A stretch of 62,728 bases of DNA from Candidatus Jacksonbacteria bacterium RIFCSPLOWO2_02_FULL_44_20 (lineage in GTDB: Bacteria > Patescibacteriota > Patescibacteriia > UBA9629). The DNA is taken from the NCBI GenBank assembly GCA_001818155.1, contig MHJU01000012.1:1-62728 (forward strand), written 5' to 3'. Made by a program: the position numbers and the translations under genes. The notes under the pieces were generated by a model. That model saw only the letters and a list, made by a program, of their open reading frames with translations. It did not search any database and had not been told where the DNA came from. Within the stretch, counting starts at the first letter, position 1. The number at the start of each line of letters is the position of its first letter. Below are positions 27,882-31,753 of the stretch, in pieces.

Positions 27882-29027
27882 TTGGCAAAAGATTACTACA
27901 ACCTATTAGGCGTCTCAAAAAACTCTTCGGAAGAGGAGATTAAAAAAGCGTTCCGCGCGCTCGCTCATCAATATCATCCGGATAAAAAAAGCGGCAATGA
28001 AGCCAAGTTCAAGGAACTGAACGAAGCGTATCAAGTATTGAGCGATCCGGAAAAACGCAAAAAATACGATCAGTTCGGCGCGAGCTTTGAACAAATGGGC
28101 GGATGGGAATCCGCAACCGGCGGAGCGCACTGGGAAGATATAATGAACGCGTTTCGGCAAGGCGGCGCGCGCGCGGGCGGTAATTTTGGCGGCAATGAAT
28201 TTGCCGGATTTTCTTTTGATATCGGCGATATTTTCAGCGAGTTTTTCGGAGGTCGCGCGTCTTCGTCCAGCATGAGTGGCGCTAGTCGCTCGCGTTCATC
28301 TCGCGGAAGGGACATTGAGATCGCTATTGAGATTGAATTTTTAGAAGCCGTAACCGGCGCAGAACGCACGCTTGAATTGAAAAAGTTTGACAAGTGCTCG
28401 CGGTGCAAGGGCAATCGGGCAGAACCCGGAACTCCTCTTATCACATGCAAGGAGTGCGGAGGAAGAGGAGAGGTTTCGCAAACGCGGCAAACCATTCTTG
28501 GAGTTATGCGCACAAGCGGCCAGTGCGGAAAGTGTGGCGGCGAAGGCGTATTCCCGAAACTTAACTGCAAACACTGCAACGGAGACGGCATGGAACGCGT
28601 TGCAAAAAAAATCAAAGTGAGAATCCCGGCCGGCATTCAAAACGGAGAGGCGATTCGCATAAGCGGCGAAGGCGAGATTTCTGAAAACGCGGCGCGCTAT
28701 GGGGATTTATACGTCGGCGTCCGCATTCGCTCGCATCATAAATTTAAGAGGGATGGCGACGACATTCACTCAAGCGAACTGATCTCATTCACACAAGCCG
28801 CGCTCGGCGATAAAATTCGCGCGGACACGGCGCACGGAAAAGTTGAATTGAAAATTCCCGCAGGCACCGAGTCCGGCACTGCATTCAAATTGAAACACAA
28901 GGGCGTGCCTAGTTTGCGTGGCGGAGGAGAGGGAGATCATTATGTTACGGTAAAAATTGTTGTTCCTGAACGAGTAAGCGCAAAAGCTAAAAAATTATTG
29001 AATGAGTTAAAAGAAGAGGGGCTATGA
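27882..29027 (+). CDS. dnaJ: Chaperone DnaJ
   Basis: HPD J-domain, G/F region, four CxxCxG zinc repeats; TTG start. Confidence 0.97.
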   Translation: MAKDYYNLLGVSKNSSEEEIKKAFRALAHQYHPDKKSGNEAKFKELNEAYQVLSDPEKRKKYDQFGASFEQMGGWESATGGAHWEDIMNAFRQGGARAGGNFGGNEFAGFSFDIGDIFSEFFGGRASSSSMSGASRSRSSRGRDIEIAIEIEFLEAVTGAERTLELKKFDKCSRCKGNRAEPGTPLITCKECGGRGEVSQTRQTILGVMRTSGQCGKCGGEGVFPKLNCKHCNGDGMERVAKKIKVRIPAGIQNGEAIRISGEGEISENAARYGDLYVGVRIRSHHKFKRDGDDIHSSELISFTQAALGDKIRADTAHGKVELKIPAGTESGTAFKLKHKGVPSLRGGGEGDHYVTVKIVVPERVSAKAKKLLNELKEEGL

Positions 29028-30316
29028 ATACGCCACATATTCTCGGTGTTCGCGTGGATGATATTTCGCTCCAAGATGCTCTGCAGAATATAGAGATGGA
29101 GCTGTCGTCTTCCGCTTCACAAAATTTTGTTGTTACTCCAAACCCAGAGATATGCCTTTTAGCAGAAAAGAACGAAGAGTATCGTCGCCATATTCTTGGG
29201 TTGGCGTTCTTGGCTTTGCCTGATGGCTTCGGATTAAAAATTGCCGCGTGGATACTTGGCACTCGTTTGAAGAATCGTGTAACAGGCGTTGACTTTATTT
29301 ATGGACTCATGGAACGCGCCAGTCAAAAAGGTTGGCGCGTTTTTTTGTTTGGAGGAGAGGGCGTGGCTCTCCGATGTGCTCAAATTTTAATGGGGCGATA
29401 TCGGGGGTTGAAGGTTGTTGGAACCTTGGATGGTGAAATTACAAATTACAAATTACAAATTACAAATAAAATCCAAATTTCAAATGATCAAATTGTTGAA
29501 ACTATCAATCAAGCGCGACCAGATATTTTGCTCGTTGCTCTTGGAGCTCCGAAGCAGGAGAAGTGGATTGCGGAAAATCTTCCCAGACTTCCATCAGTGA
29601 AACTTGCCATTGGGGTAGGAGGCACATTTGATTTTATCGCGGGACGCATAAAGCGCGCGCCAAAAATACTGCGCTCAAAAGGATTGGAATGGTTCTGGCG
29701 GTTGGTAATACAGCCGTGGCGGCTCCATCGCATCTACAACGCTACCTTGAGATTTCTCTTTACAGTGCTACTATGGAAAGTGCGGATGAGTTTTAAGTAC
29801 AGACGAAACGTTGTTGGCTTGATTGTGCGAGATAACGGCGGGTGTAGTTCAGTGGTAGAATGTCTGCTTCCCAAGCAGAAGATCGCCGGTTCGATCCCGG
29901 TCACCCGCTCCAATTTAAAAGTTTTACTGGTTGAACGTAACGACGAGCCCGGCCACTGGCAATTTCCACAGGGCGGGATTGACAAGGGAGAAACGCCAAG
30001 AAACGCGATAATGAGAGAAATGAAGGAAGAGCTTGGCACTGATAAACTAAAAATCATCAAATATGTTCAGGATTTTCATCGCTACATTTGGCCTAAAGTA
30101 GATAAACTTCGCCGCGGCTATCGCGGACAAAAACAAGATTTATTTATTTTGGAATTCACTGGCGCCGAGGGCGATATTCATATAGACAACCGCGAGCACA
30201 GTAATTATCAGTGGGCGCATTTTGATAAAGCGGTTGAGACAGTGCACGAAGTCAGAAAAGAGCAAACGCAAAAAGCATTAACTATTTTTTACTATGCCGG
30301 AAATTATCACCACTAA
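29024..30316 (+). CDS. WecB/TagA/CpsF glycosyltransferase fused to RppH-like Nudix hydrolase
   Basis: VVTPNPE, PDG.G, RVTGVD, ALGAPKQE, GLEWFWRL; then WQFPQGG and Nudix box GGIDKGETPRNAIMREMKEELG, YRGQKQ. Confidence 0.88.
   Translation: MNTPHILGVRVDDISLQDALQNIEMELSSSASQNFVVTPNPEICLLAEKNEEYRRHILGLAFLALPDGFGLKIAAWILGTRLKNRVTGVDFIYGLMERASQKGWRVFLFGGEGVALRCAQILMGRYRGLKVVGTLDGEITNYKLQITNKIQISNDQIVETINQARPDILLVALGAPKQEKWIAENLPRLPSVKLAIGVGGTFDFIAGRIKRAPKILRSKGLEWFWRLVIQPWRLHRIYNATLRFLFTVLLWKVRMSFKYRRNVVGLIVRDNGGCSSVVECLLPKQKIAGSIPVTRSNLKVLLVERNDEPGHWQFPQGGIDKGETPRNAIMREMKEELGTDKLKIIKYVQDFHRYIWPKVDKLRRGYRGQKQDLFILEFTGAEGDIHIDNREHSNYQWAHFDKAVETVHEVRKEQTQKALTIFYYAGNYHH
29436..29463 (+). repeat. (AAATTAC)x4 heptamer repeat inside CDS
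   Basis: Four perfect copies plus a degenerate tail, translated as EITNYKLQITNKIQISNDQI. Confidence 0.9.
29838..29912 (+). tRNA. tRNA-Gly (CCC), nested in the TagA-Nudix CDS
   Basis: Acceptor GCGGGTG/CACCCGC, D arm GTTC-AGTGGTA-GAAT, anticodon stem TCTGC/GCAGA with loop TTCCCAA, T arm GCCGG-TTCGATC-CCGGT, U discriminator plus CCA. Confidence 0.93.
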
Positions 30317-30656
30317 AATTGCGCCTGATCGTTTACAATATCACCTTAATAATACTTTTGGCGATATGGTGAAGTTCGTGGCAGATATTGGAAAAGGCGT
30401 CCTTGCGCTTGGCGGGGAAATGCATGCGGATTGCGAGGAAATGTTACTACAAGCAGATTCAAAACAGGAGAATTTGTGGGGGGCGAATATATACCCATAC
30501 AAAGAAGGAGATGAACGGGTAGAATATGTATCTCTCATAAATATACGTCCTCATCAGGATAATAGAGAGATGTACATTCAAGATCCGCATATCAGATTGC
30601 AAATAAAAGCGATAGCAGACAAACTGCTTCTTTCACCCGATGATCAAATGGCATAA
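30294..30656 (+). CDS. DUF5674-like protein
   Basis: GDMVKFVAD, GGEMHADCE, LWGAN, SLINIRP. Confidence 0.75.
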   Translation: MPEIITTKIAPDRLQYHLNNTFGDMVKFVADIGKGVLALGGEMHADCEEMLLQADSKQENLWGANIYPYKEGDERVEYVSLINIRPHQDNREMYIQDPHIRLQIKAIADKLLLSPDDQMA

Positions 30657-31677: not shown

Positions 31678-31753
31678 CGGGCTGTAGCGCAGTTGGTAGC
31701 GCACATGCATGGGGTGCATGGGGTCGCGGGTTCGAGTCCCGCCAGCCCGACCA
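31678..31753 (+). tRNA. tRNA-Pro (GGG)
   Basis: CGGGCTG/CAGCCCG acceptor, anticodon stem CATGC/GCATG with loop ATGGGGT, GGTTCGAGTCC, ACCA end. Confidence 0.96.

Follow-up and report, generated by a model that had tools for sequence, protein, structure and literature searches.

The closest described system is the selB-selC locus of Alphaproteobacteria, in which selC, encoding tRNA-Sec, is nested in the selB open reading frame (ORF); the paper describing it (Mukai 2021, Int J Mol Sci 22:4605, PMC8124441) presents this as the first report of a transfer RNA (tRNA) nested in an ORF of a bacterium. As set out there, an entire sense-strand tRNA gene lies within the ORF throughout a clade, maintenance of the frame is aided by tRNA lengths that are, for the most part, multiples of three, tRNA processing and full-length translation of a transcript are proposed to be alternatives, and the case is purely bioinformatic (PMC8124441). 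The same paper cites a tRNA-Lys within cox1 of the mitochondria of Armadillidium vulgare (Doublet et al. 2015, as cited in PMC8124441), a direct-orientation tRNA fully inside a coding region, for which processing and translation were likewise proposed as alternatives. Here we describe a locus that resembles both systems in these respects, a tRNA-Gly(CCC) gene within the coding sequence of a WecG/TagA glycosyltransferase fused to an RppH-like Nudix domain. It was found in a stretch of 62,728 nucleotides (nt) of Candidatus Jacksonbacteria bacterium RIFCSPLOWO2_02_FULL_44_20 (contig MHJU01000012.1), hereafter called the window. The comparative data make it probable that, in a small clade of bacteria from groundwater, a functional tRNA is nested here in sense and in frame, and that both products are kept by selection.

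Several features set this locus apart. In the alphaproteobacterial case selC forms a C-terminal tail that follows the last domain of SelB and can be dispensed with, a stop preceding selC in some lineages (PMC8124441), whereas the tRNA-Gly(CCC) interrupts a catalytic domain, falling between its strands beta1 and beta2. Essential residues flank it on either side, so that read-through would be needed for Nudix function. While selC and SelB are described as functional partners (PMC8124441), there is no evident link between tRNA-Gly and the WecG-Nudix host. Beyond what is described for selB-selC, our case includes a compensated frameshift, a promoter-like site specific to the clade and, for either flank, ratios of nonsynonymous to synonymous substitution rates (dN/dS). 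The tRNAs of Armadillidium, according to the same source, are reduced to 60 nt and belong to a very compact organelle genome, whereas here a canonical 75-nt cloverleaf is found in a free-standing bacterial genome. Our literature searches found no other nested tRNA in bacteria, although the supplements of PMC8124441 and the Armadillidium paper itself might list more.

The host Nudix domain is closest to Escherichia coli RppH and the ApnA-hydrolase branch of the Nudix family, which provides its best NCBIfam family and its best structure match and shares with it the motifs YR.NV and WQ.PQGG. It differs from E. coli RppH in that it scores under the curated cut-off, is fused to WecG/TagA and carries a tRNA-encoded loop. 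In the E. coli tRNA-tufB operon, tRNA and message are transcribed together and then parted by ribonuclease P (RNase P) and other nucleases; those tRNAs lie outside the ORF and processing spares the message, in contrast to a tRNA nested inside it. Inteins, group I and group II introns and the bypassing of T4 gene 60 are known as inserts in ORFs that are removed or skipped at the protein, RNA or ribosome level. They resemble our locus in that a foreign element in a coding sequence has not killed the gene, but the evidence presented below favours plain translation of an insert that is itself a housekeeping gene. An intein was considered for this insert and rejected, as it comprises just 25 amino acids (aa).

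Conservation of the tRNA and of the reading frame through it

The tRNA-Gly(CCC) gene is located at positions 29838-29912 on the plus strand, with its anticodon at 29870-29872. It was called there by ARAGORN and scored 70.4 bits with Rfam model RF00005 (cut-off 29, E 2.2e-14, full model 1-71), in line with an initial annotation, made from the letters of the window, that had described an intact tRNA-Gly(CCC) with encoded CCA. The genome carrying the window (G000; 1.07 Mb, 41 contigs, rated 100% complete) has 49 tRNA genes, and CCA is encoded in all of them, the nested one of 75 nt included. The initial annotation had also raised the question of whether this is the sole Gly-CCC tRNA, and it is: only one Gly-CCC gene, the nested copy, is present among the 49, with Gly-GCC and Gly-UCC genes located on other contigs. 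GGG accounts for 18.9% of the Gly codons in the 528 long ORFs of G000. The features U73, G1:C72, C2:G71 and G3:C70, which are identity features of the acceptor end of tRNA-Gly, can all be read from the nested gene.

Five distinct DNA versions of the locus were compared, namely those of G000, of three other genomes of the family (G001, G002 and G003) and of locus L032. All 21 stem pairs are standard in every version (105 of 105 cells), and five of the 21 pairs show changes on both sides, that is, compensatory changes (acceptor and anticodon stems, two each; T stem, one). Among 500 shuffles one matched this level of pairing and covariation, and the six slid controls all fell short of it. Invariant across the five versions are the anticodon loop, the discriminator, the CCA and the acceptor-end features named above. 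Because the five sequences are related, the covariation statistics are indicative rather than decisive; they suggest that the nested tRNA is maintained by selection as RNA.

An open frame over a tRNA is unremarkable on its own, since 51 of the 147 same-strand frames across the 49 tRNAs of G000 are stop-free. The nested tRNA is, however, the only one of the 49 that has a long coding stretch to either side (277 aa upstream, 133 aa downstream), while the other long frames over tRNAs in this genome begin 2-20 aa before the tRNA and run into the next gene. Outside G000, a frame of 195 aa over the tRNA-Gly of locus L135 was rejected as a chance frame, lying between two minus-strand genes.

The lengths of the insert vary between the versions, and the frame is kept in each. 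In G000 the 75-nt tRNA is preceded by a 5′ spacer of 10 nt and followed by a 3′ spacer of 11 nt. The 75-nt tRNA is flanked by 22 and 11 nt in G001, by 1 and 62 nt in G002 and by 4 and 11 nt in L032, whereas G003 has a tRNA of 76 nt between spacers of 1 and 4 nt. The sum of 5′ spacer, tRNA and 3′ spacer is a multiple of three and stop-free in all five. In G003 and its near-copy L033, an extra base in the D-loop shifts the rest of the tRNA into a different frame, which gives a different peptide, and the frame is restored by the shorter 3′ spacer. When a tree of the host protein was calculated without the insert columns, G003 (76 nt) was sister to P0006 (75 nt) with a support of 100/99, and P0011, a predicted protein of the 76-type, was placed elsewhere, so that the 76-nt state needs at least two changes. 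Further length variants are represented as proteins by P0003, P0004, P0008 and P0011. Some of the 3′ spacers contain strong hairpins, that of G002 folding at -23.4 kcal/mol, and all spacers are in frame.

The protein on both sides of the tRNA is conserved as well. For the pair of L032 and G003, dN/dS was about 0.19 over the 45 codons upstream of the tRNA, 0.31 over the downstream Nudix part and 0.24 over the WecG part; for G000 and G001 the values were about 0.19, 0.23 and 0.15, respectively. Among 32 aligned fusion proteins, R260 upstream of the tRNA is invariant and N262 is at least 90% conserved, as in the fusions without insert. In the Nudix box downstream of it, G317, G318, E332, E335, E336 and G338 are invariant and E323 and R331 are at least 90% conserved. 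When the five versions were scanned for start codons downstream of the tRNA, none was found to be conserved in frame ahead of the Nudix core: ATG, GTG and TTG are all missing from the host frame between tRNA and Nudix box in G000 and G001, and the other three have a single TTG, immediately before PQGG. As there is no conserved in-frame start, the downstream Nudix part would be made solely by read-through of the tRNA. These comparisons suggest that both the frame through the tRNA and the flanking protein are kept by selection, and the dual-coding DNA proposed in the initial annotation is supported by the covariation of the tRNA (5 of 21 pairs compensatory), by the open frame in all five versions and by dN/dS of about 0.2-0.3 on both flanks.

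In the collections searched, the nested tRNA was restricted to a single clade. The 176-aa Nudix part was used as a query against the genomes of 40 relatives, translated in six frames; the three other family genomes all matched across the tRNA, with open frames of 567, 452 and 493 aa in G001, G002 and G003, respectively. In each of the three, ARAGORN placed a tRNA-Gly(CCC) at the corresponding position, and it found no tRNA in nine outgroup loci, where the same WecG-Nudix fusion of about 400-420 aa occurs. Among 26 tRNA-Gly genes of the 40 relatives (33 loci), only the family's own were nested. In a metagenome scan, which is blind to the frame state because its query lies wholly after the tRNA, 80 of 167 loci were kept; the three closest of these (60-61% identity) carry the tRNA and an open frame and the 77 others are without any tRNA. 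A scan of species-representative genomes recovered the nested tRNA in three of 80 loci, which are the family genomes already known.

In the protein collections, P0005, P0006 and P0007 correspond to the DNA versions G001, L032 and G002, and P0002-P0004, P0008 and P0011 add further read-through variants. P0009, a close relative represented by a protein record with no DNA version, and its fragment P0010 have no insert. In the 32-protein alignment, from which P0007 and P0010 were omitted as fragments of included forms, the insert is present in nine of ten clade members and in none of the 22 outgroup fusions. The alignment of orthologues suggested in the initial annotation has a filled site in the five distinct DNA versions and an empty one in P0009 and the 22 outgroup fusions. 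Of 1.84 billion cluster representatives that were scored, three clusters match across the insert, all of this clade, and no further insert-bearing cluster was found among them. The exact protein of the window occurs on 13 contigs, and the stretch is present in 20 DNA runs from ten studies, in 18 of them at 0.81-1.00 of the sampled words.

The two-domain host protein

The host ORF (29024-30316, plus strand) encodes 430 aa plus a stop, and its start overlaps the end of a dnaJ-like ORF upstream (27882-29027). The tRNA at 29838-29912 lies inside this ORF and the peptide quoted in the initial annotation is present, which agrees with the stop-free host frame described there; the deletion of precisely these positions in silico was reproduced by script. 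The fusion of two domains, a WecG/TagA glycosyltransferase and a NUDIX domain, was recognised with Pfam, AlphaFold2 and Foldseek and is a feature of the host that the initial annotation does not mention. The WecG/TagA/CpsF domain covers aa 62-238 (29207-29737), with 185.5 bits against a threshold of 27.4 for PF03808 and 132.1 against a cut-off of 69 for TIGR00696; the TarA equivalog model, with 137.2 bits against a cut-off of 350, was not reached. The N-terminal piece of the Nudix domain (aa 255-271, 29786-29836) precedes the tRNA; it includes strand beta1 and the conserved motif YR.N and was delimited by alignment, AlphaFold2 and dN/dS. As the first tRNA base is at codon position 2, 26 host codons (aa 272-297, 29837-29914) contain tRNA bases, and AlphaFold2 places them in a peptide loop. 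The rest of the Nudix domain, from strand beta2 onward, extends from 29915 to 30313, as indicated by Pfam and NCBIfam matches starting after the insert, by dN/dS and by the start-codon scan. It contains an intact Nudix box at aa 317-339 (29972-30040), identified by reading the sequence and by alignment.

The Nudix domain was matched by PF00293 at aa 288-412 with 69.6 bits against 21.1. In NCBIfam the RppH models ranked first, with 94.7 bits against a cut-off of 118 for NF001936 (E 4.8e-27) and 91.5 against 116 for NF001938, and the relative P0010, which lacks the insert, likewise remained under the RppH cut-off with 93.8 bits. By sequence, the closest solved relatives are a plant diadenosine tetraphosphate (Ap4A) hydrolase (E 5.8e-17) and RppH (about 1e-9). 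Because its scores are under the curated cut-offs, the domain is RppH-like and no certified RppH. The RppH-like host of the initial annotation therefore holds for the fold and for the best-matching family, but not at the level of the curated cut-offs (94.7 against 118).

An AlphaFold2 run on the 32-row alignment gave a host model with a predicted local distance difference test (pLDDT) of 89.9 and a predicted template modelling score (pTM) of 0.83. Strands 259-270 and 298-305 were confident, whereas aa 274-294, within the tRNA-encoded stretch, had pLDDT below 50. The protein of G003, which has a different insert peptide, was modelled with pLDDT 90.3, strands at 275-285 and 310-316 and low confidence in between. 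With Foldseek, TagA/TarA was matched by the N-terminal domain (TMt 0.92), and the best match of the C-terminal domain was E. coli RppH (4s2y, TMt 0.79, E 5e-12). The low-confidence loop between the confident strands beta1 and beta2 is what one would see for the insertion in a Nudix beta-hairpin put forward in the initial annotation, and in these models the tRNA-encoded loop is predicted to be tolerable to the Nudix fold.

Some further observations concern the host gene. WecG/TagA-Nudix fusions of about 390-440 aa are widespread in Patescibacteria, with 22 outgroup proteins aligned, many matches of about 400 aa among the cluster representatives and 77 + 77 scan loci; the sources that name this fusion label it as a WecB/TagA/CpsF glycosyltransferase alone. 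A hairpin of 14 pairs with a T run behind it, located in the coding part for WecG (29311-29343, plus strand), resembles a terminator and may be a chance product of the codons for ERA...GWRVFLF. The WecG part also has a low-complexity, highly variable insert at about 29441-29473 (aa 140-150) with pLDDT below 50. P0003 and P0004 contain short in-frame repeats (PPYEGG..., PLLTKEG.GEV) at several sites, including the spacer right after the tRNA. These repeats resemble translated palindromic repeat elements, and the host protein seems to tolerate in-frame loop insertions. In G001 (L002 688-2388), a relative of the same genus, the host frame continues into the next gene and reaches 567 aa, and the end of P0005 matches PF18924; the counterpart of this downstream gene in the window (30294-30656) overlaps the host ORF in another frame.

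Expression, processing and rival explanations

The reading that we prefer would proceed as follows. A tRNA would have been inserted on a single occasion into the Nudix hairpin formed by beta1 and beta2, in the common ancestor of one family-level clade of Patescibacteria. Ribosomes would translate through it, adding a disordered loop of 26-46 residues and leaving the Nudix fold otherwise intact; the sequence of the insert peptide would be irrelevant and continuity of the frame alone would matter. The tRNA would be freed by RNase P and 3′ trimming, and its source could be the long host messenger RNA (mRNA), a shorter transcript from a promoter 54-75 nt upstream, or both. A full-length mRNA, once cut, would be lost as a message. 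Since cutting destroys it, the reasonable inference is that one long transcript gives either tRNA or protein. Transcription, processing, translation and a regulatory use of their competition are all inferred. It is possible, but in our view rather doubtful, that the nested tRNA acts as a switch, in which tRNA folding and RNase P would compete with translating ribosomes on each long transcript and the translation load would set the ratio of tRNA-Gly(CCC) to the fusion of RppH-like enzyme and cell-wall glycosyltransferase. If this were true, a tRNA gene would directly gate the dose of a protein that perhaps itself triggers RNA decay.

A consensus scan found a promoter-like site within the host ORF at 29747-29774 on the plus strand (TTGAGA, 16 nt, TG-extended TACTAT), the -10 element of which ends 63 nt before the tRNA. 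The pattern TTGAAA/TTGAGA, 16 nt, TG, TAnnnT ends 54-75 nt before the tRNA in all five distinct versions, including those in which the amino acids encoded there are not the same. Of the corresponding positions in outgroups (76 usable loci, anchored by tblastn), three of 76 had any such match and none had the TG. This sigma-70-like site is a candidate promoter of the tRNA's own, and part of the tRNA may come from a shorter transcript. Because the five versions are related and the site overlaps conserved codons, we treat it as a lead and not as a finding. No terminator-like site was found in a scan between the tRNA and the end of the ORF. As for RNA machinery, G000 has an RNase P RNA (167.6 bits) and a gene for the ligase RtcB. 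The RtcB match (G000:C20:3652-5382, minus strand) is in two pieces (profile 1-76 and 46-426) about 170 codons apart within one open frame of 606 aa; the split may reflect an intein or other insert.

The initial annotation had left room for an intron-like fate, in which the tRNA is excised at its mature ends and the mRNA halves are ligated to yield a protein without the insert. Exact removal of the tRNA would indeed keep the frame in four of the five distinct versions, L032 would then have a hairpin of the same length as the empty site, and a ligase gene is at hand. In G003 and L033 (76 nt, spacers 1 and 4), however, exact removal leads to a frameshift with a stop three codons on, and the frame through the tRNA is open in all five versions although such removal would not require a stop-free frame. 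In addition, RNase P leaves 5′-phosphate and 3′-OH ends, which are no substrates for RtcB. We consider this route disfavoured and very unlikely. Conversely, the insertion might have inactivated the Nudix domain, so that WecG and the tRNA alone matter and the open frame is inherited chance. About one third of frames across tRNAs are stop-free by chance, the versions share ancestry and a long loop in a catalytic domain could do harm, all of which would be compatible with a dead or dying domain. Yet the Nudix part after the tRNA retains dN/dS of 0.23-0.31 and invariant Nudix box residues, and at least four independent changes in spacer length plus the frameshift inside the tRNA left the frame intact each time, for which a rough estimate gives (1/3)^4, about 0.01, before counting stops. 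A dead domain is therefore unlikely.

It could also be the tRNA that is no longer used, the stretch now being a coding insert alone that looks like a tRNA from which no tRNA is made. That tRNA-Gly(UCC) may cover GGG codons fits such an exapted relic, as does the dispensability of the anticodon that may be read from the order-level outgroups searched, where no Gly-CCC gene was found. But a disordered peptide loop that is read in two frames gives no cause for 21 stem pairs to be kept in five versions with five compensatory changes, nor for invariance of the anticodon loop, CCA and acceptor features, and none of the four family genomes was found to have a second Gly-CCC gene; this explanation, too, is given very little credence. 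An internal start after the tRNA, from which the Nudix part would be translated separately, would make the frame through the tRNA irrelevant. The internal promoter-like site and the downstream RNA fragment that processing would leave are in its favour, whereas G000 and G001 lack an in-frame start, the lone TTG before PQGG elsewhere would drop the conserved strand beta2, strand beta1 with the invariant R260 upstream of the tRNA is still conserved, and maintenance of the frame is left unexplained, which makes separate translation highly improbable. A chimeric assembly is conceivable in a draft of 41 contigs, as tRNAs can attract misjoins, but the same architecture is found with diverged sequence in three other genomes and three metagenome contigs, and the occurrence of the exact protein on 13 contigs and of the stretch in 18 runs at 0.81-1.00 of sampled words leaves it next to no probability.

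Several points nevertheless weigh against a nested gene with two maintained products. The family sample comprises four genomes, and the five DNA versions are relatives, so that the counts for frame and promoter are not independent trials. Silent sites (dS) are saturated in the pairs other than the two given above, that is, in most. The variants known only as proteins come from a predicted-protein database, in which broken frames would not appear as one protein, and no RNA runs are among the 21 runs found for the stretch. By wobble rules, tRNA-Gly(UCC) could read GGG, so that the CCC tRNA may be dispensable. The hexamers of the promoter-like site overlap codons that are conserved, and the consensus scan found two sites compared to 3.7 in shuffles, which is no excess. 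Finally, a cut by RNase P would leave a non-stop 5′ fragment; no transfer-messenger RNA (tmRNA) was found in G000 above the Rfam cut-off or by ARAGORN -m, although a divergent form is possible, and without one cutting would be costly.

Origin of the insertion and its meaning

The insert of L032 is exactly the 75 nt of the tRNA, and its removal leaves a hairpin as long as that of the empty-site protein P0009. The inserted unit was accordingly close to a mature CCA-ended tRNA, as the insertion of a mature-tRNA-sized unit proposed in the initial annotation requires. Because the insert is almost exactly a mature CCA-ended tRNA with no flanks, entry via an RNA intermediate is possible, and the insert may be a bacterial retrocopy of a tRNA, one that has remained functional. 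The CCA end does not prove an RNA intermediate, since every tRNA gene in G000 encodes CCA, and as no reverse transcriptase (PF00078) was found in G000, an RNA-mediated origin is unsupported by the present gene content. No Gly-CCC gene was found by BLAST or pattern search in G004-G007, the order-level and nearest class-level outgroups (completeness 88-98%), and many genomes of the class have a Gly-CCC gene in an ordinary intergenic position. The closest tRNA outside the family, in G028, is 93% identical, which fits relocation and transfer alike. P0009 lies in a polytomy of the host-protein tree, so that an ancestrally empty site and a loss of the tRNA both fit.

Two further observations concern tRNA genes. 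Every family member (L003, L004, L032-L034, L146-L148) has a tRNA-Pro(GGG) at a distance of 0.7-1.9 kb downstream of the nested one, at 31678-31753 (plus strand) in the window, and no tRNA was found near the WecG-Nudix fusion gene in outgroups. The tRNA set of G000 contains one tRNA-Ile(TAT), just two CAT tRNAs and three copies of tRNA-Ile(GAT), which suggests that AUA is read by a UAU anticodon and not by a lysidine-modified CAU tRNA.

ORFs overlapping tRNAs are routinely dropped as false calls by gene finders and curators, whereas the comparative evidence at this locus indicates that both are real. The one precedent from bacteria, with selC at the tail end of selB, would thereby be extended to the interior of a folded domain and to an ordinary elongator tRNA. 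The dual constraint appears to be met flexibly, as sister lineages read this tRNA in two different frames. In these Patescibacteria, the WecG-Nudix gene with its tRNA would offer a natural system for the competition of ribosomes and RNase P on one RNA, for the tolerance of the Nudix hairpin to insertion and for the movement of tRNA genes in reduced genomes.

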